DNA of 64,000 nt. Origin: an uncultured Candidatus Saccharibacteria bacterium (lineage in GTDB: Bacteria; Patescibacteriota; Saccharimonadia; Saccharimonadales; UBA4665). Below the pieces are notes generated by a model, which saw only the letters and a list, made by a program, of their open reading frames with translations, was not told where the DNA came from and made no database searches. Numbering within the stretch: the first letter of the stretch is position 1; each line of letters opens with the position of its first letter. This document shows, in pieces, positions 53,148-63,290 of this stretch. The DNA lies in the NCBI GenBank assembly GCA_964494495.1, contig CAZBQZ010000003.1, positions 6,900 through 70,899 on the forward strand, written 5' to 3'. The position numbers were made by a program, and so were the translations under genes.

Positions 53148-55049
53148 CTACAGGCTTCCTGGTGTCAGTTTATTTGCCAAATCGATGGTACCACCAACTT
53201 TATCCATACTGCCGGCCTGTATTTGCTGAACTTGGGCGGGGTTGGTAGTAATAAGTGTGGTCTCGGTAGGGCTGGCTACCACCTGGATGTGTACGTGGTT
53301 TTGGCCGGCAAAAAACAGTCCCTGGCCTACCGGGAATTGGCTTAGGCGTTTCTTTTCTTCGCTCGTTAGTTTAAAGACGTCGGCAAGCACGTCTACCGCC
53401 GATGGTGATTGTTTTAGTAAAAATTGCATGCTGGCGTTGGCGACAATGGCGCGGCCCATGCGCGATCCCATAAAGTCTTCAACGTCTTGAGTAATAGTGG
53501 TTATGCCCAAGTTGTACTTGCGGGCTCGTTTAGCTAGGCTAAACAAGAAGTTGGCCGAGTCTTCGTATTTCATCAACTGCCAAGCCTCGTCTACAATAAG
53601 GAGGCGTTTTTTGCGATCGGTTTTGGTCTTGTTCCAGATGTAATTAAGCACGATGTACATGGCAACAGGGCGCAATTCGTCTTCTAGATCGCGAATGTTA
53701 AAGACTACCAGCGGGTTGTTAATGTCGATGTTGCTTTGTTGGCTAAATATACCGGCAAATGTTCCTGTGGTGTATTTGCGCAGACGTTGAGCCAATTGGG
53801 GGCCAGTGCCGCTCATGTGTAACAGCGTGTCGTAGAGGTCGGCAATAGTTGGAGGCAAACCCTGGTGTGTCAGTGGGTCGTTAGTAATGCCGGCGCGTGC
53901 ATAGGTTTCTATGAGCGCGGCGTCTAGGTCGGATTCTTCGACCGGACTGAGCGCCGGTGCCATAACGGCATTGCCGCCTTGCATTTGAGCTTGTGCACCA
54001 CCCATCATCAGACGCAACAAGCCGTGTAGAGTGATGAGGTTGCTGCGCAACGCATTGTCCGCTTCTTCGCTGTCTACTACGCGCGGTAAGTCAAACGGAT
54101 TGATACGCGTGGCCGAACTTAGGCTTAGGCGAATATAGGCGCCGGCAACAGCGTCGCTCATACGTTCGTATTCGTTTTCGGGGTCGATGATAAATATTTC
54201 AGTGCCCATCATCATGCTGCGCAGTGCCTCGAGCTTGACGGTAAACGACTTACCGGCGCCAGACTTAGCAAAGACCACCGAGTTGCCATTTTCTAGGCTA
54301 AAGCGATCAAAAATAACGAGTCCGGAGTTGTGCATGTTAATACCGTACAAAATGCCGCTGTCTTGGCTTAAATCGGCCGAGGTAAACGGAAAGCTAGTAC
54401 TAATAGCGCCCGTGCTCATGTTGCGCCTAATTTGTAGTTGGTCGGTAAATTGCGGCACAGTGCTGTTAAGCCCCTGCTCTTGCTGCGAGCTGGCAGGCTT
54501 GCTAAATACCAACTGTTGTCCGAGCATGGATTCTACCTTATGACTAACAAACTCCAGCTCTTCCAGACTGCCGGCATACACGGTAAAGTAAAAGCCAAAA
54601 CGGAAGAAGCGCTCTTCGCCAACCTGCAGTTTGTCACGCATTTCTTCGGCGTCCAAAATAGCAGCCTGCTTTTGTGGGTCGCGCACACGGCCCTTTTCGG
54701 AGTCAATTTGAATACCGGCTTCCAGCTGGGTGACTTTTTTGCGTAGGTTGTCGAGCACCACCTGGCTTTCTACCGGATATATAAAGAGAGATATATCAAT
54801 AACTTCGTCTAAGTTGACCATGCTGCTCATCCACCCGGTGTACAACTGACGGGGGTAGCCGTATACGTAGTACGTGCGCGCTAGGCGGGTGCCAAGCTGG
54901 AAATAGCTGCTATTAAGCTCAATAGAACTGGGCGCAATAAAGTCGCGCAGTGCGGTAATGCCCTTTTGAAATGCAGCTGCTACTTCTTGTTGCTCGCGTT
55001 GTTGCTGTGCCTGTGCCAGCGCAACCGGATCCATTTGTTTTTTAGCCAT
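53148..55049 (-). CDS. virB4: VirB4/TraE-like type IV secretion ATPase
   Basis: Walker A variant AKSGAGKS, IIDPENEY, INPFD, Walker B LLIVDEAW, KRARKY and TQDVEDF; start set at ATG 55049. Confidence 0.92.
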   Translation of the reverse strand: MAKKQMDPVALAQAQQQREQQEVAAAFQKGITALRDFIAPSSIELNSSYFQLGTRLARTYYVYGYPRQLYTGWMSSMVNLDEVIDISLFIYPVESQVVLDNLRKKVTQLEAGIQIDSEKGRVRDPQKQAAILDAEEMRDKLQVGEERFFRFGFYFTVYAGSLEELEFVSHKVESMLGQQLVFSKPASSQQEQGLNSTVPQFTDQLQIRRNMSTGAISTSFPFTSADLSQDSGILYGINMHNSGLVIFDRFSLENGNSVVFAKSGAGKSFTVKLEALRSMMMGTEIFIIDPENEYERMSDAVAGAYIRLSLSSATRINPFDLPRVVDSEEADNALRSNLITLHGLLRLMMGGAQAQMQGGNAVMAPALSPVEESDLDAALIETYARAGITNDPLTHQGLPPTIADLYDTLLHMSGTGPQLAQRLRKYTTGTFAGIFSQQSNIDINNPLVVFNIRDLEDELRPVAMYIVLNYIWNKTKTDRKKRLLIVDEAWQLMKYEDSANFLFSLAKRARKYNLGITTITQDVEDFMGSRMGRAIVANASMQFLLKQSPSAVDVLADVFKLTSEEKKRLSQFPVGQGLFFAGQNHVHIQVVASPTETTLITTNPAQVQQIQAGSMDKVGGTIDLANKLTPGSL

Positions 55050-55050
55050 A

Positions 55051-56037
55051 CTAACCAAGCTCCCTTTGTAAGTGCGCCTGTGGGGCACTGCCCTGACCCT
55101 TGGTGATAATGTCGGCATTTAGATTACCAAAGTTTTTGAGTTGTTGGCGGGTGGCGGTGTCGGGGTTGTAGGTGTCGTAGTACAGCTCAATGAGCTCTTG
55201 TGTATCGAGGGGTAGGCCCTGAATACCCGATTGCAACAGACCGGCTAGCACCGATTGCACACGGTTGCGCAGTTCGGTTTTGGCTTTTTCTAGGTCGGCT
55301 TCGTTAATAACAACGTGTTTTTCTTTGGAGTTAAATAGATCTAAAAAGCCAGTAAAGAAGTTTTTACTTTGGGTAATAGCCTTTTGAATTTCGATGTGTG
55401 GGAAGTACGGAATAACCACATAGAACTTTTTGTCCATGATGTTGGTTTGCCGAGACAAAAGATCGATATACGAGATGTAATCCTCCATGAGCATTGCCAG
55501 GAGCATGTTGTCGTGCTCGGTGCGGATTTTATCGAGTTTTTCGATGTATGATTGCAGATCAACTTTTTGCGAACGAATAAATATTTGTATTGGAAAATAA
55601 AGCGAGTTAAGAAAACCCTGGTACGAATATTCGACAGCTTCTTGCTCTTGCGGACTCATAAGATCAAAGTTGACGGATTTGACCATCACTACAGAACGGA
55701 ACGAGCCATCGCTCATAATGACAATCCCGTCGCGGATTTCGGCAATTTGCAATGTATTTTGCGTGCTGTTGGGGTTACTGTGGTGAACCGGTTGGGCAAT
55801 TGGGCGTCCGTCTGGGCCAGTTGCAGTGCTAACGGTAGCCCCTGCTCCAGTTGCTGGAGCACCCGGCATGCCAACTGTATTAGTTAAAGCCGCGGCTTGA
55901 TGTGTAAGGTCGCTCACGGCGAGTGGCGGATGTGCTTGCGGCATAGGCTGTTGTACGGTTGGCTGAGGTTGCGGGATATATGGCATGCCAGGCGCAGGAG
56001 CGCCGGCGTTGGGTTGATTGGGTGCGTTTGGGTTCAT
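55051..56037 (-). CDS. T4SS accessory protein resembling the N-terminal non-ATPase part of VirB4/TraE; P/Q-rich N-tail
   Basis: STQNTLQIAEIRDGIVIM, VNFDLMSPQEQ and FLNSLYFPIQI pattern; lies between prgI-like and virB4. Confidence 0.7.
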   Translation of the reverse strand: MNPNAPNQPNAGAPAPGMPYIPQPQPTVQQPMPQAHPPLAVSDLTHQAAALTNTVGMPGAPATGAGATVSTATGPDGRPIAQPVHHSNPNSTQNTLQIAEIRDGIVIMSDGSFRSVVMVKSVNFDLMSPQEQEAVEYSYQGFLNSLYFPIQIFIRSQKVDLQSYIEKLDKIRTEHDNMLLAMLMEDYISYIDLLSRQTNIMDKKFYVVIPYFPHIEIQKAITQSKNFFTGFLDLFNSKEKHVVINEADLEKAKTELRNRVQSVLAGLLQSGIQGLPLDTQELIELYYDTYNPDTATRQQLKNFGNLNADIITKGQGSAPQAHLQRELG

Positions 56038-56054: not shown

Positions 56055-57254
56055 TTAGTGCAATTTAATAACTACTTCATCTTGCGGCGCTGCCCGTTCC
56101 GCTTCGCGGGCAATAGTTGCAACATTGAGATCGTTATTCCGAGATAGTTGTAGTATAGCAGCCTGGCCCTGCGGCGTCACTGCGGGCGGTTCTTGCGGTG
56201 CAGAAACAAGTGGTGCTTGCGGACCGGGGCTGGGCGAAACCAGAGGTAGTGCTTGCGGTGCAGACGTAACGGCTGTCGGTTGCTGCACGGCTCCCTGTTG
56301 AACACTGGGCTGTTGCATTGGTGTGCCTTGAGCAGAGAGCGGTTGGATGGTGTGCAAATGTCCGTAGTAGGAGGTGGTAGGCAGCGATTGACGGCGAGCG
56401 TCAAGCTCGGCAACAATATGTGCTTCGTCGGCAAATGGGTCGGCTGCTGTTTGTTGGGTTTGTGGTTGTGCCGCGCTTGCTGGCTGTGCAGAACTGGGCG
56501 TGACTACCTGCGTATTAAATGTCACCATATTGCCGGGTACACTGGCGCCCTGTGCCGGTTGGTTTAAAAACCAAAAATCGCGTGCCGGTGCGGGCGCTGG
56601 CGCTTCTTGCATGCGTTGCATAATTTGCTCGCGGTGGACTTTAGCGCTTTCCGAAATCATAGTGTCTACGCGATGAGCATCGCGATTGTTCTTTTCGTCC
56701 AGAATGTCGTCTGACGCCATGACTTCTACATTGGATACCGGCTGGGGCAATGCGCTGGGCCCAATAAGGCGGTCGGATTGGGGCTCGACCATGGTTAGCG
56801 ATTGTTGTGAATACAGATTTAGGTTGGCGTTTTTAATAGCCCAACCCCGGCTGTCGATAGTCTCGGCCAGGGCACGCAGGCGGCTTTGTACTTCGGTTTG
56901 TGACAAGCCGTTGGTGTACTCGATATGGACCTGCTTTGGAACAGTTACTGTTACCAGCTCCTTAACGCCGCTTTGGTCCCAAATGCGTCGCCGCGGTTTG
57001 ATAAAAAATCTGATTTTGGCTAATGCCCAAATTTCGGTTGGTTGGTCCCTGCCCCAAGGGAAAGCAAAAAAAGCCGATACAACAGCAATTGGCATAAAGA
57101 TGGCTAGTGCAAACGTCGCATGATGTGTTGCCAAAAAGTAACTTAAATACAAGCAAATAGCCGCTACGCCAGCATAAATAAACTGGCGTAACGACAAAGG
57201 CCCAATAAGTTTGTCCTCAGCCTCTATGTCCTGAATAACCTTATAGGTAGACAT
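56055..57254 (-). CDS. PrgI/VirB3-like membrane protein with long P/Q-rich C-terminal extension
   Basis: YKVIQDIEAEDKLIGPLSLRQF PrgI signature plus two TM helices; TATACT 9 nt upstream of the ATG. Confidence 0.82.
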   Translation of the reverse strand: MSTYKVIQDIEAEDKLIGPLSLRQFIYAGVAAICLYLSYFLATHHATFALAIFMPIAVVSAFFAFPWGRDQPTEIWALAKIRFFIKPRRRIWDQSGVKELVTVTVPKQVHIEYTNGLSQTEVQSRLRALAETIDSRGWAIKNANLNLYSQQSLTMVEPQSDRLIGPSALPQPVSNVEVMASDDILDEKNNRDAHRVDTMISESAKVHREQIMQRMQEAPAPAPARDFWFLNQPAQGASVPGNMVTFNTQVVTPSSAQPASAAQPQTQQTAADPFADEAHIVAELDARRQSLPTTSYYGHLHTIQPLSAQGTPMQQPSVQQGAVQQPTAVTSAPQALPLVSPSPGPQAPLVSAPQEPPAVTPQGQAAILQLSRNNDLNVATIAREAERAAPQDEVVIKLH

Positions 57255-57301
57255 TACCTATATAGTATACCCGAGTTAGTGACTGGCTTGTAGGGGCCTG
57301 T

Positions 57302-59206
57302 TTAAGGAATGTATACGCCCGCGTCGGAGTACGAGGCAACCAGAGCGCCATTAGGAGCGAAGAGCCGCGAGCTGCCATCTGGATAGATAACCCAGTTGCC
57401 TGTGCGTCCATTAAGACGTGAATTAGGGACGAGCACCGAGCCATCCGGGCGTAGTAAGCTGGTGGCATAACCGGACTCGTTTACTGCAAACGGGTCGCCT
57501 ACGCGCATACGGGCTACACGGAACTGCGATCGGTTTTCGCGGATACGCTGAATAATTATATTTTGTAGGTGGTTGTTACGCAGGCCCTGGGCCACAGCAA
57601 TCTGGTTGCGCAATTCGCGGCCCGCGGCCATAATCTTGCGCTCTTCGTGTGAGTACTGCCCTTCGTCGATACCAGGAGCGTGGTTGCTAATAACTGTGGC
57701 TTCGGCAACTTGCTGAGCACGTACGCGGGACTGCAAGGTAGTTAGTTGTGCATCGACGGCAGTAAGTTGTACTGCCGATTCGGCAGCTCCAGCCTGAGCT
57801 TGATCAATGCGTAGTTCGTGAATATGGGTAACATCGGCTGCGGCGGCACGGGTGCGAACTACCTCTTGTACGATGTCAAAGTGGTTAACCTGGTTGTCTA
57901 CTTCGGCTTCGTCGGAAATATCTAACTCGTCAATTTCTGCCCTGTGAGGTGGAGTTACGGGTCTGGTTGGGGCGCGCCAAGGTCTGCCATTGGTGTACTC
58001 GCGCACCATATGGCCACTGGCGCTGTCGAAGTGCAGTACGCTGCTGTCTTCGTATAAAGTCACCTGTTGGGTCGGGTTGTACGGATCGATGTTTACTGTA
58101 ATGCTGCCGTCGTGGTTAAGTCGCCGCTCGTATGGAGCGCTGGCAACTTCACTACTCATGGCTACCCGCTCCTCTAGGCGGATTCGGGCAACGATAAGCT
58201 CATCGTACAAGTCGGAACGAGCCGTAGAGCGTGGCGCTAGCAATTCAAGAGTATTAGCGGCTTCATCCAGGTTTTGGCTTACGGCAGCGGCTTGGTCTAC
58301 GTCAGGTTCGCCGCTCAAATACCAGCCAACTAAATTGTTACGGGCACTGTCTAGATTGGCCTCAACTGTTTGTACATTTTGTACGTGATCTTCTAGCACG
58401 TTGGCAATTTGTCCGATTTCGTACGATAGACCCTCGGATGAGATCTGCAATGCACCAGCTTGTCTGTGTAGGTCATGTAGCGCTTCGGCACTTAAGCCAG
58501 GCAGCTTCGATGGTTTGTCGACATTGGCTTTGCCGCCATTTTTCGTGTCTGAAATCTGGCGTAGCGATTGGTTTATTCTGGCCTCGTGCTCCTTGCGGTT
58601 TTTTGCTACACGATCAGCGTAGGCTGCAGGCGTTTCGCTGGGGAATTTTTGCGTTTGGCGGGGGCCGGCTGCAATACGATAGAGCGTTCGTGCTTCGAGA
58701 ACATCGAGTTCGTTCTGTCGAACTTCTGCCGCCTGGCCTGTTACGTCACTGTAAGAATCGGCGTTACGTTCGTACGTCTGACTGCCATTAAGCGCATGGC
58801 TCAGTAGCGGCACGAGCCTGTCTGGGTCTCCCTCGTTAATAAGCGTGATGATGGTATCGCGCGTTTCGGCAGTGCGGTTTTGGCTAAGTTGTGCAGCTCG
58901 TGCACCGTGATCACGAAGCGCGTTACTTGCGGGCCCCATTACCATTGGAGACATGTTTGGGTCTGCCGCCATGCGCGCTCGCAGCAAGTCTGCATGCCCG
59001 CCAGGCTGTTGATTGGCAACTGTGTGGTTTGCAGTCCCTACCCGCGTGCGAAGTTCCTGGAGTTGTCTGAGGATATTAGCTTGAGTCGTGGCTGCGTCCT
59101 GCATGCTATAAGGTTCACCCACGCTGGGCATGGGCGTGTCGATCATACCATCGAAATGCTCCGGGGTTCCAGGGTACGCATTAAAGGGATTTATGGGGTT
59201 TGTCAT
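57302..59206 (-). CDS. 634-aa orphan soluble protein (coiled-coil plus duplicated beta module) inserted in the T4SS cluster; candidate effector
   Basis: No signal peptide or TM; own promoter; two similar about 50-aa beta-hairpin modules. Start set at ATG 59206. Confidence 0.75.
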   Translation of the reverse strand: MTNPINPFNAYPGTPEHFDGMIDTPMPSVGEPYSMQDAATTQANILRQLQELRTRVGTANHTVANQQPGGHADLLRARMAADPNMSPMVMGPASNALRDHGARAAQLSQNRTAETRDTIITLINEGDPDRLVPLLSHALNGSQTYERNADSYSDVTGQAAEVRQNELDVLEARTLYRIAAGPRQTQKFPSETPAAYADRVAKNRKEHEARINQSLRQISDTKNGGKANVDKPSKLPGLSAEALHDLHRQAGALQISSEGLSYEIGQIANVLEDHVQNVQTVEANLDSARNNLVGWYLSGEPDVDQAAAVSQNLDEAANTLELLAPRSTARSDLYDELIVARIRLEERVAMSSEVASAPYERRLNHDGSITVNIDPYNPTQQVTLYEDSSVLHFDSASGHMVREYTNGRPWRAPTRPVTPPHRAEIDELDISDEAEVDNQVNHFDIVQEVVRTRAAAADVTHIHELRIDQAQAGAAESAVQLTAVDAQLTTLQSRVRAQQVAEATVISNHAPGIDEGQYSHEERKIMAAGRELRNQIAVAQGLRNNHLQNIIIQRIRENRSQFRVARMRVGDPFAVNESGYATSLLRPDGSVLVPNSRLNGRTGNWVIYPDGSSRLFAPNGALVASYSDAGVYIP

Positions 59207-59242
59207 GCTTATATTATAAGCATATACTTGATGAAAAGTCAA
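59205..59242 (-). promoter_or_regulatory. Leaderless promoter TTGACT-N18-TATAAT-N6-ATG with two palindromes
   Basis: -35 at 59242-59237, -10 at 59218-59213; TTGAT-N5-GTCAA at 59228-59242; ATGCTTATA-T-TATAAGCAT at 59205-59223. Confidence 0.72.
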
Positions 59243-59267: not shown

Positions 59268-62200
59268 CTACGAAGCATCGGGGTTGTAGGGGTCGTACGG
59301 CTTGGCGCCATATGCGTCCAAGTTGCGACGCGAGCGCTCGGTAGCTGGGTTGGTAGCGGGGTTTGGAGCGTAAATTGGTTTGCCAGTACTTGGGTCGCGC
59401 ACCAAAGCGGGGTTGCCGTTTGCGTCTATAACTGTTTCGCCCACCTGCGGGAAGTACGTTGTGCCATCTGGGCGTGGAATACCGCTGGTAATTCGTACGT
59501 CGCCAGGCTGGTATGTCTCTGTAAGGTAGGTGACTTCTGGTTGGTCGGTAACAGGGTTAACCTTAAGCTGCGAAGCACTGGCTTCCATACGGATACGTCG
59601 GCGGCCGCTCGGACTGGCATAGACGTATTGGGGTTGGTTGCCGTTAGGAGTGTATTGAGGGTTTACGACCACAGTACCAGTATTGGCGCCGCTAGTAGGC
59701 TGTATAACCTCTGTGCTGGCAATTTCCATGTTGTTGACCGAGCCGTATGGTGCAGCCTGTTCGATCTTGTCGATACCAGCTGTAAGCTTGTCGAGCTCGT
59801 CGCGGGCTCGGGCTACTGCGGCAGCATCCGTAGAAGTGTCACGCGTAACTTCGCGGCGCTGGAAGACGCGCCTGGACGCTTGCGACATATTGCGCAATGC
59901 CTGTGGCTTATCGCGAGCAGCGGTTACGCCATCGATTTCGAGCATAGCGTTCGACACGGCTTCATCAACGGCGACATCGTCAACGACTCCGCCGCTAGCT
60001 GCCATACCATCGTACAACTTCATCTGAGCGTTGTAGCCTATCTTTAGGTCGTGGCGGCCGTTAGCGGCCACAGCGTTTAGCTCACCAAGTAACGAGGCAG
60101 CCTGGCCACGGTTTGCTCCAGCCACCCCAAATACTGCTCTTTGTAGCTCGGCCTCGTCGCCAAAACCTGTACTGGTAGCGCCCAGGCGTCGCACTGCGTA
60201 CACCTGTCGTGCTTTGCTCCAGCCACCAGCTGCCCTGGCTGCCGAAATAGCATCTTCCATGTTTCGTGCGTCGACTGCTGCGTCGCCGGTATTGTACGTA
60301 CTGGCAAACCTTGTTGCTAGCCCAGCGCGAGCTTCTGCCTCGCTACCAAACGAGAGAGCATGGTGTTGTAAGTCGTTTTCTTTAGTAGCCTGGGCGCGTG
60401 CACTTTGCGCATGCTTGGCGGCAACCATGTCACGGTGTTGTGTAAATGCTTGCTGGCGGGTCCCCTGATTGGTTAAGAACCCCAATTTGCTCTCGGCATG
60501 GCCGAATGCAGTGGCGCCCTCGGTGCCGGTGTTGAACGCCCCAATACCCCGGTTAAGCGTGCGACTAAAAGCGTTATTGCCAGCAAATTGGTTAAAGCGT
60601 CGTCCTTCGCCCATTTTTTCCATATTGTTCTTGAGCTGGTTGGCGCGGAAGTTTTTAAGTCGGTCAAAGGCGCCCTTGCTACGGTCGTTAACTACACCAC
60701 CTACCGTGGCCACCAGGCCGCCTGCCAGACGGAAAGCTGTTGGAATCAAGAAGTACGGTGCAAAGTAAGCAATTATGAAGATAAACTGGCCAATGACCCC
60801 ACCGTTGTTGACGGCACCAGCCACCTGCGCAAACACGTGACCAACGGCAATAAAACCAGACATAATTGGGAACATAGCGAGCGCGCCGCTTGTGCTATCA
60901 AGCCAGATCTTTCCCCCTTTTCGAGTGTTGGGTAATACGTAGAGGGCAATGGCCATGGGTGACAAAATAACTAGGAAAATAACTGCCATTTCTCGGAAGA
61001 CTAACAGTATAAAACCAACAAATACAGCAAGTAGCGCGGTAAGCGCAAAGCTCAGTAATCCAAACGCGCCCAAGCCAATAAATGCCACACCACCGAGCAC
61101 TGCCAGCGCATCTGATGTGCCCGCACCAATGTGGGCAGCCCCCAGCACACTAAACGGCTTATATATAAGTGCTCGTACGCCGTAGCCTAAGACGTCGGAC
61201 GCAGTAATGGCTGCTTTCATGAGTTGCCACGAAATCGCGATGGCAATCACGGCCACGAGTAGCCTGGGCAATATCTTTTTTATAGCATAGGCGTCCAGAA
61301 CGTCGGCCCCTAACGCCTGCGAAATAATCATTACCAGGCTAGCAATTACAATAACTGCCATCGCTAAAATGCGCACGCTATTCCATGCTTTATAGAAGCA
61401 CGGCCCAGGGTTACTGTCACCGCAGGCGCCCTTTTCATTTAGGTATGTGTCGACACTAATGTTAAGCATATCGTTGATGGCGCTGTCGAACGAGCCAGCC
61501 AGCGAGATTGCAGCTTGTGCAATCGGGCAAATGAGCCATGACAACGAAATTTTAAAGATATCGCATACTAGCTGGTTTGAGTCGGCGGTGCCTGAACCCG
61601 AGTCGTCTATGGCGCCAGTCCCACCACTATACAAAGCGGCGTCGGTAATTGCATAGACGTGCAGGTCGCCAAATGTAACCGCACAACCGGTACCGGTTTT
61701 GCGCAGAGTCCAGTTAATGGGGAAAATTTTGCTGGTTTGTTTGTCTAGTGGGTTTCCATCCCCAGCTCTGGCCCGGCCAAGGTATGCGCAGCTAGTGTCT
61801 GCGTGGTCGTAGTAGGTTGGATTTTGAGTACCTTGGTTAACGTCGTAGTTGCCAATGTAGAGTGCCTCGTGTCCGTCGCCACCAGGGAATGCCGTAACTA
61901 GGCCTTTACCATCGGTATAGAACCAAATTTCTGAATTAGTGCGGTCGGGTAGCAAGTATTCCGGCGATGGCAACCCAGGTTGGCTGGTGTTCCCTCCCGA
62001 AGGATCTGTCACTATCGAGCCATTTGCTGTGTAGTCATAAAACAACAAACCGGTACAGGCCACACTATCGATACCGGCATTGATACGCTGAACAATCTGG
62101 GCATTGGTTAGCGTTCCATTGCCATTGTCGTTATATGTCAGGTTGAAGCCGGCACTTTTGAAGGCAGGATCTCCACAGACCGGGGCATCTATGAATGGTA

Positions 62201-63290
62201 CATGATTGTCGGTCCCAGCGCTGAAGGGGTCAATATCGGGATTTTGTCCTTGGGCATCAAGGGTTTCTCCCTCCCTGCTGGGTTCATCGGTTGCGGAAAG
62301 GAAATATATATTGGTGCTGTCCCAGCGATAGTCGGTGTACATTTCGTGATACGCTGTACCGCCCTGATTATAGGTTATGGTAATGTGCGCTACATCCTGA
62401 AAGCTAGCATTGGCCGCTGCGCCAAACAAACCTGGACTAAGTAACTTGGAGATACCGCCTACGACAATGTGGTGTGTTACATAATTACGCACATCATCGT
62501 AATGTTGCAAATTACCATTGGTATTTTGGCCGTCGGCAGTCAGACCGTTGGTACCATCCTTAGTGAACTGAAGTACTAAACCATTGCCGTGATAGTTGGC
62601 GGCCCCGTGGGCACCACACTGGGTGTTACAGGTGGCGTTGATCTCGCGACCGATAAGCTTTATTGAATCATCGCCATTAAACTGGACAGGTATAAGAGTA
62701 AAGCGAGGGCTGTCCAATGTACCGCAACCTAGCCGGTTGCCGGCATCAGTCGCAGGAGTGCTCGATACCATGATATTGCTTATCTTATTTATGTGGGCCA
62801 GGATTTGCTTTATATACGACACACCTGTATTTATGTCTATCTCTCCGGTACGCTTGGTTGTGTCCAGAGAGCCGAACCAGTAAAAAAAGCCATTACCGTT
62901 GACGGCTACGACTGTCTGAACGGCGGCTTTAATCTCGGCATCGCTCTTGCCAACATACTGAGAGATATTTTTTAAACCTATAGAATTAAAGACAGTTTGG
63001 TCGTCGAGAGTGCGTTGTACAAAATGGAACTCACACGTAACGCCAAAGGTTGGATCGATATGTTTGTTCTTATCGTTCCAATCCAAAGTAAAGAGTTCGT
63101 ATGGTGGGGTCGTCGGGTCGTCGGTGGGGTCGCCATAGACCATTGGAACATTACTGACCCCATTATCGGCACTGGCTCGCGGTATAAATGGTGTGACAAG
63201 TGGCATTGCCAGGCTTAGCAGCAGCAAAAAAGCAATCGTCAATGTGGTCAGGCGACTCTTCCAGCCGACTAGTGCACCAGCCATGCTCAT
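59268..63290 (-). CDS. Giant VirB6/TrbL-like membrane protein with a large N-terminal extracellular domain and long C-terminal tail
   Basis: Signal sequence ending near RASA, about 560-aa D/N/G/T-rich region, TM core (WLICPIA, FYKAWNSVR, KKILPRLLVAVI, LVILSPMAIALYVLPNT), then helical and Pro-rich tail. Confidence 0.75.
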   Translation of the reverse strand: MSMAGALVGWKSRLTTLTIAFLLLLSLAMPLVTPFIPRASADNGVSNVPMVYGDPTDDPTTPPYELFTLDWNDKNKHIDPTFGVTCEFHFVQRTLDDQTVFNSIGLKNISQYVGKSDAEIKAAVQTVVAVNGNGFFYWFGSLDTTKRTGEIDINTGVSYIKQILAHINKISNIMVSSTPATDAGNRLGCGTLDSPRFTLIPVQFNGDDSIKLIGREINATCNTQCGAHGAANYHGNGLVLQFTKDGTNGLTADGQNTNGNLQHYDDVRNYVTHHIVVGGISKLLSPGLFGAAANASFQDVAHITITYNQGGTAYHEMYTDYRWDSTNIYFLSATDEPSREGETLDAQGQNPDIDPFSAGTDNHVPFIDAPVCGDPAFKSAGFNLTYNDNGNGTLTNAQIVQRINAGIDSVACTGLLFYDYTANGSIVTDPSGGNTSQPGLPSPEYLLPDRTNSEIWFYTDGKGLVTAFPGGDGHEALYIGNYDVNQGTQNPTYYDHADTSCAYLGRARAGDGNPLDKQTSKIFPINWTLRKTGTGCAVTFGDLHVYAITDAALYSGGTGAIDDSGSGTADSNQLVCDIFKISLSWLICPIAQAAISLAGSFDSAINDMLNISVDTYLNEKGACGDSNPGPCFYKAWNSVRILAMAVIVIASLVMIISQALGADVLDAYAIKKILPRLLVAVIAIAISWQLMKAAITASDVLGYGVRALIYKPFSVLGAAHIGAGTSDALAVLGGVAFIGLGAFGLLSFALTALLAVFVGFILLVFREMAVIFLVILSPMAIALYVLPNTRKGGKIWLDSTSGALAMFPIMSGFIAVGHVFAQVAGAVNNGGVIGQFIFIIAYFAPYFLIPTAFRLAGGLVATVGGVVNDRSKGAFDRLKNFRANQLKNNMEKMGEGRRFNQFAGNNAFSRTLNRGIGAFNTGTEGATAFGHAESKLGFLTNQGTRQQAFTQHRDMVAAKHAQSARAQATKENDLQHHALSFGSEAEARAGLATRFASTYNTGDAAVDARNMEDAISAARAAGGWSKARQVYAVRRLGATSTGFGDEAELQRAVFGVAGANRGQAASLLGELNAVAANGRHDLKIGYNAQMKLYDGMAASGGVVDDVAVDEAVSNAMLEIDGVTAARDKPQALRNMSQASRRVFQRREVTRDTSTDAAAVARARDELDKLTAGIDKIEQAAPYGSVNNMEIASTEVIQPTSGANTGTVVVNPQYTPNGNQPQYVYASPSGRRRIRMEASASQLKVNPVTDQPEVTYLTETYQPGDVRITSGIPRPDGTTYFPQVGETVIDANGNPALVRDPSTGKPIYAPNPATNPATERSRRNLDAYGAKPYDPYNPDAS

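Follow-up and report, generated by a model that had tools for sequence, protein, structure and literature searches.

The closest described counterpart of the locus analysed here is SEML1_0006-0019, a type IV secretion system (T4SS) locus of Southlakia epibionticum ML1 (Wang et al. 2023, PMC10633639; Quinonero-Coronel et al. 2025, PMC12102498), which is of the same type. As presented in the available accounts, the Saccharibacteria T4SS has neither a relaxase nor a recognizable coupling protein, its cargo is unnamed, and the one cultured species tested cannot grow on its host without it (PMC10633639, PMC11665869, PMC12102498). Reviews call its role “completely unknown” and name no substrate (PMC10633639, PMC11665869). 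The T4SS gene-repertoire account of PMC12102498 and the relevant parts of PMC10633639, PMC11665869 and PMC12857230 cover the engine and the pilins and do not treat genes located between virB6 and prgI. We studied one such gene in a window of 64,000 nucleotides (the whole stretch of DNA that was analysed) from the 95%-complete genome of a soil Saccharibacterium. Ribosomal protein uL30, whose absence is a hallmark of CPR bacteria, is absent from this genome and present in 13/14 control genomes. The gene and its neighbours are the following:

59268-63290, minus strand: VirB6-like polytopic membrane protein of 1340 aa with six hydrophobic stretches, the upstream neighbour
57302-59206, minus strand: coding sequence (including the stop codon) of the 634-aa protein, P0001, with its ATG start at 59206 backed by the family alignment
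56055-57254, minus strand: PrgI (VirB3-like) protein, the downstream neighbour (Pfam PF12666, E 5e-13)
53148-56037, minus strand: TrsD-like protein (VirB4 N-domain-like, 328 aa) and VirB4 ATPase (656 aa), assigned with NCBIfam

A homologue bearing Pfam TrbL_3 shares 54% identity with the VirB6-like protein, the NCBIfam matches are to TrsD (9.5e-6) and to the CD1110-type VirB4 (2.7e-107), and five small TM-bearing genes lie upstream in divergent orientation at the position of the pilin array; syntenic loci give Pfam T4SS_pilin matches. Judged by VirB4 with a separate TrsD-like gene, PrgI/VirB3, a VirB6-like gene, a cell-wall hydrolase and a VirB2-like pilin array, these Pfam and NCBIfam assignments place the locus, though not the 634-aa protein itself, in the Saccharibacteria/Patescibacteria chromosomal T4SS type. 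The possibility that the 328-aa ORF reflects a frameshifted VirB4 was dropped, a separate TrsD-like gene being normal in Patescibacteria according to the gene-repertoire account (PMC12102498). With the ML1-type locus, as far as it has been described, ours shares the divergent VirB2-like pilin array, the VirB6-like gene, PrgI, TrsD, VirB4, a large membrane protein and a lysozyme/M23 hydrolase, as well as two absences: no relaxase is in view at the locus, and searches of the 95%-complete genome with PF02534 and PF12696 found no VirD4-type coupling protein.

The ORF list and translation, together with Pfam and homologue evidence for the neighbours, bear out the reading frame, the length of 634 aa counted from the ATG and the position between the virB6-like and prgI-like genes given in the preliminary description of this DNA. 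A TTG at 59242, which would open a 646-aa frame, was rejected as start because it is itself part of the -35 box of the promoter. Two features precede the coding sequence:

59213-59242, minus strand: promoter TTGACT-18 nt-TATAAT, an 11/12 match that ends 6 nt ahead of the ATG
59205-59223, no strand assigned: perfect 19-bp palindrome ATGCTTATA-A-TATAAGCAT, which spans the -10 box and the first start-codon bases

That the gene has its own promoter had been proposed from the outset, and this promoter is the top sigma-70 match in the 8 kb between 55900 and 63900; the transcript would probably be leaderless. The 9-nt arms of the palindrome are 100% complementary (repeat search pair I2). Across 14 loci, the pattern TTGACW-N11-12-(A/G)TGCT(T)AnnAT is kept 5' of the genes that occupy the interval between virB6 and prgI, hereafter the slot (alignment A3). 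In this genome the motif occurs a single time, ahead of no other gene, and it therefore defines no regulon. The separate TATACT of prgI, likewise noticed early, lies at 57264-57269, 9 nt 5' of the prgI ATG, and is kept at least in the related genomes G021, G003 and G016, other relatives having other -10-like hexamers.

The protein had been called an orphan, which proved too strong: a full HMMER scan recovered 12 distant relatives with 18-23% identity within the alignment, and the protein, judging by these alignments, is a member of a small and very fast-evolving family. The 13 members (P0001 and its 12 homologues, alignment A1) are colinear and have in common both beta modules described below, R330/R343/R347 and the motifs WE..RT, N...YW and LNG..GNW. 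The family set consists of these 13 representatives and the copies in G003 and G005, which the A1 profile recovers at 3.4e-64 and about 4e-12, respectively. Such intact colinear members with invariant residues, and the confident AlphaFold2 models, indicate that P0001 encodes a real, predicted soluble protein. Scans of the 634-aa protein against Pfam, NCBIfam, PHROGs and PADLOC gave no relative, all that Pfam yielded across the family members was coiled-coil noise, a word-index homologue search returned the query alone, both from the single sequence and from the alignment, and a sequence profile search of the PDB retrieved only designed or coiled-coil proteins (E >= 0.039). The family is known from uncultured lineages only.

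Its members are linked to the T4SS. At nine loci (G000, G021, G003, P0002, P0003, P0005, P0006, P0011 and P0013) the family gene directly follows the VirB6/TrbL_3 gene and, wherever the contig extends that far, precedes prgI, with a second cassette intervening at P0005; the slot thus holds 9/10 family members whose upstream gene is visible. P0009 lies directly upstream of a prgI-like ORF on a short contig that ends short of the upstream gene. A paralogue of 860 aa in G005, a genus-mate genome with an empty slot, is flanked by murE-like and tsaD-like genes (by-eye assignments), ~20 kb from the T4SS genes, and carries the same promoter type as the slot genes. At another locus (L061), a second slot gene has a separate copy of the slot promoter. 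Compared with the closest loci, identity is 94-97% for VirB4, 72% for TrsD, 65% for PrgI, 53-54% for the VirB6-like protein and 24% for the 634-aa protein; across the 18 related loci compared for the slot, VirB4 remains 81-95% identical.

The slot itself is highly variable. Among 18 related loci with an intact virB6-prgI interval, the family occupies it in two (G021 and G003), whereas in seven it is empty or without an ORF of at least 150 aa, two of these seven having gaps of 0.7-1.4 kb. In G016 it contains the detached C-terminal part of the VirB6-like gene, in G023 an AAA ATPase-like ORF (identified by eye) and in the remaining loci mutually unrelated ORFs of 166-771 aa with no Pfam match. 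Pfam scans of the other slot proteins found nothing, and neither the other slot proteins nor the tail of the VirB6-like protein were credibly matched by the family profile. The interval comparison thus upholds the suggestion of a variable slot, and the alternative of a conserved structural component found in most relatives does not apply to a family detected in 4/23 genomes of the genus and in 0/400 other genomes sampled across the order. Since most relatives have the slot empty or otherwise filled, the P0001 family is accessory and not core.

AlphaFold2 yielded models of the full-length protein (pLDDT 78.7) and of its C-terminal half (pLDDT 88.4, pTM 0.80), from which the following architecture is predicted:

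59108-59206, minus strand: residues 1-33, proline-rich N-terminus with a P..P..PE motif, predicted disordered (pLDDT about 32)
58157-59104, minus strand: residues 35-350, long alpha-helical region (AlphaFold2 helices H35-66 to H328-350)
57959-58132, minus strand: residues 359-416, beta module 1, four strands (strands E369-403)
57500-57910, minus strand: residues 433-569, two helices of about 50 residues each in an antiparallel hairpin (C-half model)
57305-57469, minus strand: residues 580-634, beta module 2, four strands (strands E591-626)

Within the disordered N-terminus, P12 and P15 are nearly invariant across the family. The long helical region is the family's most variable part, in which R330, R343 and R347 stand out as conserved in A1. 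Beta module 1 has the consensus F.PDRG..V....G...LYEDGS.....G...RR..DG..W, with D387 and R402 invariant, and is followed by a proline-rich linker that leads to the helical hairpin (helices 36-90 and 103-151 of the C-half fragment), modelled as roughly 75 angstrom long and carrying the motifs WE..RT and N...YW (E448 and R451 invariant, N558 and Y562 nearly so). Beta module 2 (consensus LNG..GNW.I..DGSS.L....G..V.Y...G) is the best conserved part of the family, with G600, G603, W605, G611 and G630 invariant, and the best phmmer stretch of the top homologue covers residues 517-631. Structure prediction, one of the checks suggested beforehand, thus produced confident models but no significant structural relative: Foldseek gave no match at E < 0.05 for the full-length model against the PDB or for the C-half model against the PDB and BFVD.

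A duplicated module of helix and beta hairpin had been proposed from two segments aligned by eye. They correspond to residues 359-407 and 580-630, exactly where they had been placed, and long predicted helices precede each of them. From the single sequence their similarity is not significant: a BLASTP self-comparison detected no repeat, a Smith-Waterman comparison of the two halves was average for shuffles (207/500 reach the score), and the hand-picked segments score 34 against 19.6 +/- 3.8, with 7/2000 shuffles reaching 34, for a choice of segments made post hoc. At the profile level, by contrast, the beta modules of the 13-member alignment match each other in hhalign (probability 94%, E 1.3e-7; probabilities 90-94%), and on well-occupied columns the score is 30.1 against 9.3 +/- 2.4 for shuffles (maximum 21.9, 0/300 reaching it), with a reversed control at 0.1%. 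A first column-shuffle control had been contaminated by gap-rich columns (4/200 reaching the score, one outlier at 135.8) and was redone on the well-occupied ones. The module HMMs match every family member, and the HMM of the middle module has its second-best match on the C-terminal module in most of them. The helical parts alone have no detectable similarity (hhalign probability 0.5%). Beta module 2 is accordingly homologous to beta module 1 by profile comparison, and the part of the proposal that concerned duplicated helices falls away. The module also remains undescribed, as had been supposed: it corresponds to no Pfam family, even as concatenated copies, the beta-hairpin repeat families CW_binding_1, MORN_2, YD and PQQ-like were rejected with no Pfam match to them in any member at E <= 1 or in 13 concatenated copies of either module at E <= 10, and in the PDB only a PQQ-propeller blade came up as a hint, at E 2.2. 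In a six-frame translation of the genome, the module HMMs find only P0001 and no second carrier.

In agreement with the preliminary description, the 634-aa protein has no signal peptide and no hydrophobic or transmembrane segment, its maximum Kyte-Doolittle 19-residue mean being 0.89 as compared with 2.3-2.9 in its membrane neighbours; it shares the lack of a hydrophobic segment with TrsD and VirB4, the other soluble proteins of the T4SS locus. It contains 0 cysteines, versus 10-12 in the exposed neighbours, and no enzymatic or toxin motif was found in it. Its K/(K+R) of 0.13 is the second lowest among 459 long ORFs, partly because the gene has a higher GC (0.541 versus 0.509; r = -0.39; residual z = -2.3 for lysine depletion). 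Residues 2-26 include five prolines against a genome mean of 1.27, and proline-rich N-termini are common even to non-homologous slot proteins. Slot genes thus share the conserved promoter and proline-rich N-termini, with lysine depletion in most, not all. A PE/PPE-like type VII signal was considered and dropped, the P..PE resemblance being superficial.

P0001 is best read as one allele family of a hypervariable virB6|prgI cassette position in the chromosomal, relaxase-less Saccharibacteria T4SS locus. As for its role, we lean, at somewhat under an even chance, towards a lineage-specific T4SS cargo or host-interaction cassette and not a part of the machine. The protein, which has no Sec signal, would be synthesized in the cytoplasm, each cassette bringing its own strong promoter, often positioned for a leaderless transcript. 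The engine might then handle it as an accessory, either delivering it to or into a host bacterium as cargo or displaying it, independently of Sec, at the contact site; the conserved beta modules and flanking motifs may serve machine recognition or target binding while host-driven selection would diversify the helices. The gene, its family, the synteny, the variable slot, the duplicated module and the kept promoter are shown by the data; that the protein is exported, that it has a host target and what its modules do is what we infer from several observations. The extreme divergence next to a conserved engine (24% versus 94-97% for VirB4) and the cassette behaviour seen in the G005 paralogue outside the slot and in the second promoter copy of L061 count for a cargo, and the lack of signal peptide and TM, the 0 cysteines, the low K/(K+R) and the proline-rich N-terminus would suit passage through a narrow channel or life in a foreign cytoplasm. 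Against it, no VirD4-type coupling protein was found, so that cytoplasmic T4SS substrates would lack their canonical route; the C-terminus is not arginine-rich, unlike Agrobacterium-type signals; the conserved module occurs in one protein per genome, unlike shared effector signal domains; GC partly accounts for the low lysine, and no enzymatic or toxin motif was found. Moreover, a protein without an export signal is cytoplasmic by default. It is thus a plausible but unproven candidate for the machine's cargo. A more elaborate version, which we regard as quite improbable, would make the virB6|prgI interval a dedicated site for T4SS cargo, pairing a near-consensus extended -10 promoter (TTGACW-N11-12-ATGCTAnnAT, often leaderless) with a Sec-less, Cys-poor, N-terminally proline-rich and often lysine-poor protein, which the coupling-protein-free T4SS would recognize via the proline-rich N-terminus and/or the beta modules. 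Lysine depletion would then shield the injected protein from pupylation in actinobacterial hosts, by analogy with the A chains of AB toxins, which avoid ubiquitination.

A rival that we hold unlikely but ahead of the others is a cytoplasmic T4SS accessory (adaptor, gatekeeper, chaperone or ruler-like protein) that would dock on the ATPase, TrsD or PrgI via its beta modules, possibly replacing the coupling protein. It would explain a protein as devoid of export signal and hydrophobic segment as TrsD and VirB4 in a genome where no VirD4 homologue was found, and it suits the alternation of variable helices with conserved modules and a weak, non-significant Foldseek likeness to the coiled-coil export-apparatus proteins FliJ and YscO. 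However, the family is missing from most genomes with the same, nearly identical engine, it lacks an NTPase motif and matches nothing in Pfam or NCBIfam, one paralogue (G005) is unlinked from the T4SS locus, and identity as low as 24% is difficult to square with partners that are themselves 94% identical, unless the modules alone dock. In particular, it is not a VirD4/TcpA-type P-loop NTPase, having no Pfam/NCBIfam match at E <= 0.01, and none to such a domain at E <= 1 in family members. The unlinked paralogue, which sits among housekeeping genes, would fit a gene that has nothing to do with T4SS function, perhaps a selfish or niche-specific one, lodged in an intergenic site that tolerates it, an explanation to which we give a low probability. 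The slot could be an insertion hot spot where interruptions are tolerated because prgI has its own promoter, whose -10 box is retained in several loci whether the slot is filled or not, and it also accepts the AAA ATPase-like ORF of G023 (by eye) and unrelated ORFs elsewhere. Nevertheless, nine of the ten placeable family members occur in this one slot, the listed ORFs revealed neither an integrase or transposase nor repeat ends, and the promoter type is common to different slot genes across genomes and unique within this one.

Position within the operon, and the fact that no VirB8 homologue is known in Saccharibacteria from the gene-repertoire account (PMC12102498), could finally suggest a diverged structural component (VirB8, VirB5 or VirB10 analogue), while AhlC, XaxA, YaxA, IpaB and colicin E3 among the top Foldseek entries could suggest a helical pore-forming toxin of the ClyA/AhlC/XaxA type. 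Both are disfavoured and, in our view, highly improbable, given that the family is missing from most relatives and every Foldseek match has E > 0.05 and a low TM score, a generic helical-hairpin similarity. VirB8-like proteins (PrgL/TraM/TcpC) combine an N-terminal TM helix with an NTF2-like domain, whereas P0001 has no hydrophobic segment and is modelled as helical hairpins and small beta sheets with no significant Foldseek match. VirB5/pilus-tip proteins have a Sec signal and a roughly 220-aa three-helix bundle with an appendage; our protein has 634 aa, no signal peptide and no match in Pfam or Foldseek. ClyA-family toxins are distinguished by a helical tail bundle and a hydrophobic head or beta tongue; the matches to AhlC, XaxA and YaxA (E 0.36-1.8, TM <= 0.44) come without such a head or tongue, hydropathy peaking at 0.89.

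The slot proteins offer concrete candidates for T4SS-dependent export, as Sec-less, fast-evolving proteins encoded inside the locus, and slot position, promoter motif, proline-rich N-terminus and low lysine provide a rule for finding more. Together with the variable pilins and the VirB6 ectodomain, slot cassettes may be a seat of host-specificity determinants, as opposed to an engine whose identity across the order is 81-97%.

Among known systems, the T4SS of the Streptococcus suis 89K island, which exports protein, is a monoderm precedent (PMC12857230), although that system, as described there, is unrelated and has a coupling protein, and its exported proteins are not related to the 634-aa family. 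The receptor-binding hairpin of colicin E3 (2b5u), AhlC (6r1j), FliJ (3ajw) and IpaB (3u0c) also have antiparallel helices of about 50 residues, a generic coiled-coil resemblance (E 0.1-1.4, TM 0.2-0.5) that is no evidence of homology; the four-stranded DG-turn module of our family is in none of them. The X-Tfe effectors of the bacteria-killing Xanthomonadales T4SS carry a C-terminal XVIPCD domain, which recurs in several effectors of a genome and is read by VirD4. By module count and coupling protein, P0001 does not qualify as an XVIPCD-type effector, since the module HMMs match only P0001 in a genome where no VirD4 was found. Unlike X-Tfe, it has its module once per genome, with VirD4 not found and no cognate immunity gene evident. 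Like X-Tfe, it is encoded with a T4SS, has no Sec signal and combines a variable body with a conserved C-terminal part, and its targets, too, would presumably be bacteria.

The open reading frame at 57302-59206 (minus strand) is borne out as the gene of a 634-aa protein, P0001, counted from an ATG that is backed by the family alignment; a longer 646-aa frame starting at TTG was rejected, since this TTG opens the -35 hexamer. The surrounding cluster is the T4SS locus known from Saccharibacterial chromosomes (PMC10633639, PMC12102498).

Genes of the T4SS cluster, in order
minus strand, 156-aa single-TM protein
minus strand, VirB6-like protein of 1340 aa with six hydrophobic stretches, upstream of the 634-aa gene
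57302-59206, minus strand, 634-aa protein
minus strand, PrgI (VirB3-like) protein, Pfam E 5e-13, downstream of the 634-aa gene
55051-56037, minus strand, TrsD-like protein, 328 aa
53148-55118, minus strand, VirB4, NCBIfam CD1110 type, 2.7e-107
minus strand, membrane protein, 822 aa
minus strand, lysozyme/M23 hydrolase

Further along the contig, past the end of the window, five small TM-bearing genes stand in divergent orientation at the pilin-array position. A frameshift as the origin of the separate TrsD gene was rejected, since a separate TrsD is normal for this chromosomal locus in Saccharibacteria. The VirB4 ORF as listed shares 68 nt with the TrsD-like ORF; its true start probably lies about 20 codons further in, because relatives start VirB4 at the TrsD stop or just past it.

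The preliminary description took the protein for an orphan, which does not hold. A word-index homologue search returned the query alone; when 1.84 billion representatives were scanned exhaustively with HMMER, 12 relatives came up, colinear, 579-687 aa long and 18-23% identical (E 1e-14 to 2e-4). By profile search, 4 of the 23 genus genomes carry the family; among 400 further genomes drawn from the order, which cover 256 genera, the window's own among them, it turned up in none. Nine members (those of the genome under study, G000, and of the related genomes G021 and G003, together with P0002, P0003, P0005, P0006, P0011 and P0013) follow the VirB6/TrbL_3 gene immediately and, wherever the contig reaches, precede prgI; P0009 lies immediately upstream of a prgI-like ORF on a 3-kb contig that stops short of the upstream gene. 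The exception is the 860-aa copy of genome G005 (L066:3993-6575, contig G005:C20, minus strand), placed by eye between murE-like and tsaD-like genes about 20 kb from the T4SS genes of that genome, whose virB6-prgI slot is empty; a promoter of the shared type lies ~60 nt upstream of it. The contig of the genus mate G021, a soil MAG (DATIJU010000008.1, L069), is titled 'Bacillota bacterium' in NCBI, probably a labelling error, because genome size, T4SS locus type and the absence of ribosomal protein uL30 in G000 point to Saccharibacteria. G000 measures 1.29 Mb and lacks uL30, which 13 of 14 control genomes possess, as fits a CPR bacterium.

The suspected variability of the virB6-prgI slot was confirmed across 18 related loci with an intact interval. 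The family occupies two of them; seven have no ORF of at least 150 aa (five gaps of 8-125 bp, two of 0.7-1.4 kb); an ORF that looks AAA ATPase-like by eye fills one; and in one (G016) the VirB6-like gene is split, with a 665-aa C-terminal piece that has no detectable similarity to the family. The remaining slot ORFs (166-771 aa) match neither the family, nor one another, nor Pfam. The two G016 ORFs (L036:5042-8637) measure 538 and 665 aa, and the VirB6-like C-terminal end, as in G019, carries the motif ...SDRR(I/L)KRNI...LYRFQY...GVMAQ(D/E)L, presumably resembling the self-cleaving chaperone domain of phage tail fibres (Peptidase S74). On the contig of P0005, a second slot gene (L061:7897-9072, 370 aa, without Pfam hit) follows the family member and has its own promoter copy, TTGACA-N12-TATGCTATTAT, 6 nt ahead of the ATG, so that two cassettes, each a slot gene with its own promoter, fit into one slot.

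Compared with G021 or locus L059, identity is 94-97% for VirB4, 72% for TrsD, 65% for PrgI, 53-54% for the VirB6-like protein and 24% for the 634-aa protein, which, judging from these values, evolves faster than the other locus genes compared here. The gene is absent from most relatives that share a near-identical T4SS engine, so that it is not a conserved part of the machine. That the protein is a structural component which has diverged, or a pore-forming protein, is very improbable; its position inside the locus would speak for it.

The gene also has its own promoter, as had been proposed: TTGACT-18-TATAAT (11/12) is the top promoter match within 8 kb. It ends 6 nt ahead of the ATG, which would imply a leaderless transcript, a layout not special in itself because a -10-like box lies equally near the start codon in about a fifth of window genes (10 of 49). 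Across 14 aligned loci, the regions upstream of slot genes (consensus TTGACA-N..-CAA..ATATGCTTATAAT) are conserved far better than the slot proteins, and in them TTGAC and, at a constant distance from it, a TG.T block never vary. This type of promoter also stands before non-homologous slot genes in G012, G006, G036, G008 and G020, the second L061 gene and the out-of-locus G005 copy; its motif occurs once in the G000 genome. A perfect 19-bp palindrome, ATGCTTATA-A-TATAAGCAT (window 59205-59223), covers the -10 box and start codon of the 634-aa gene; related loci conserve another element, a spacer block CAAGCAT(A/G)TGCTT holding the 12-bp palindrome AAGCATATGCTT. Either palindrome could be an operator.

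In line with the preliminary description, the protein lacks any TM segment: hydropathy averaged over 19 residues peaks at 0.89, and no stretch is hydrophobic. Cysteine is absent, the net charge is -21, and Lys and Arg make up 1.3% and 8.2% of the residues. Among the 459 ORFs that reach 300 aa, only one has a lower K/(K+R) than this protein's 0.13, and the value is still low once GC is regressed out (z = -2.3). Slot proteins with the shared promoter type have 4-8 prolines in residues 2-26 (genome mean 1.27; at least 4 in 6.3% of genes), and many of them, not all, are lysine-poor, those of G036, G006 and G008 having ordinary Lys content. In composition and N-terminus the 634-aa protein is similar to other, unrelated slot occupants. 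ORFs poor in lysine (K/(K+R) not above 0.13) also form clusters on G000 contigs (C8:30358-34147, C8:60543-60998 and C4:10684-42941); their GC is a little elevated, they have no evident annotation, and they may represent further lineage-specific or acquired genes.

Predicted features of the 634-aa protein (full-length AlphaFold2 model, pLDDT 78.7, pTM 0.51)
residues 35-350, long helices
residues 369-403, four strands
residues 453-507 and 520-569, two helices of ~50 residues each
residues 591-626, four strands

Modelled alone, the C-terminal half reached pLDDT 88.4 and pTM 0.80. Foldseek found nothing below E 0.05 in PDB and BFVD, its lists consisting of generic helical hairpins (colicin E3, AhlC, SMC arms, FliJ, IpaB, tape measures). 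Of the repeated helix plus beta-hairpin module proposed earlier, the beta part stands. Taken alone, the sequence gives no significant sign of duplication: the two halves yielded nothing relevant when compared by BLASTP, their Smith-Waterman score lies within the typical shuffle range, and the score of 34 for the segments picked by hand (shuffles 19.6 +/- 3.8) follows a post hoc choice. Duplication of the beta module (residues 359-416 and 580-634) is supported because the two match in profile-level comparison with homologues (hhalign probability 94%, E 1.3e-7; reversed control 0.1%); with columns limited to those of 70% occupancy or more, none of 300 column shuffles (mean 9.3, sd 2.4, maximum 21.9) reached their score of 30.1. 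In most members the middle-module HMM finds its second match at the C-terminal module (independent E-value 2e-4 in the 634-aa protein). No similarity was detectable between the helices preceding the modules; for duplication of helix and hairpin as one unit, the similar predicted topology is no more than a hint. Neither module matched Pfam repeat families, even as 13 concatenated copies. The VirB6-like C-terminal tail (window 59268-59700) has DG-turn hairpin-like stretches (…IPRPDGTTYFPQVGETVIDANGNPALV…) that resemble the modules by eye and were not detected by the module HMMs.

The gene is tightly linked to the T4SS locus and has its own strong promoter. The most economical reading, which we hold tentatively, is a lineage-specific cassette whose product the T4SS would handle, either as cargo destined for the host bacterium or as a Sec-independent protein at the site of contact. 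Counting against it, no coupling protein was found in the G000 genome, and the module HMMs found no second carrier of the conserved module there. A cytoplasmic adaptor or gatekeeper that would dock through the conserved modules is a rival we regard as unlikely, and less improbable than a gene without ties to the T4SS that has landed where insertions are tolerated; the variety of slot occupants speaks for this last reading and their common promoter type against it. The Saccharibacteria T4SS locus is known and its cargo is not (PMC10633639, PMC11665869, PMC12857230); the portions of the published accounts available here (PMC10633639, PMC11665869, PMC12102498, PMC12857230) describe no genes between virB6 and prgI.
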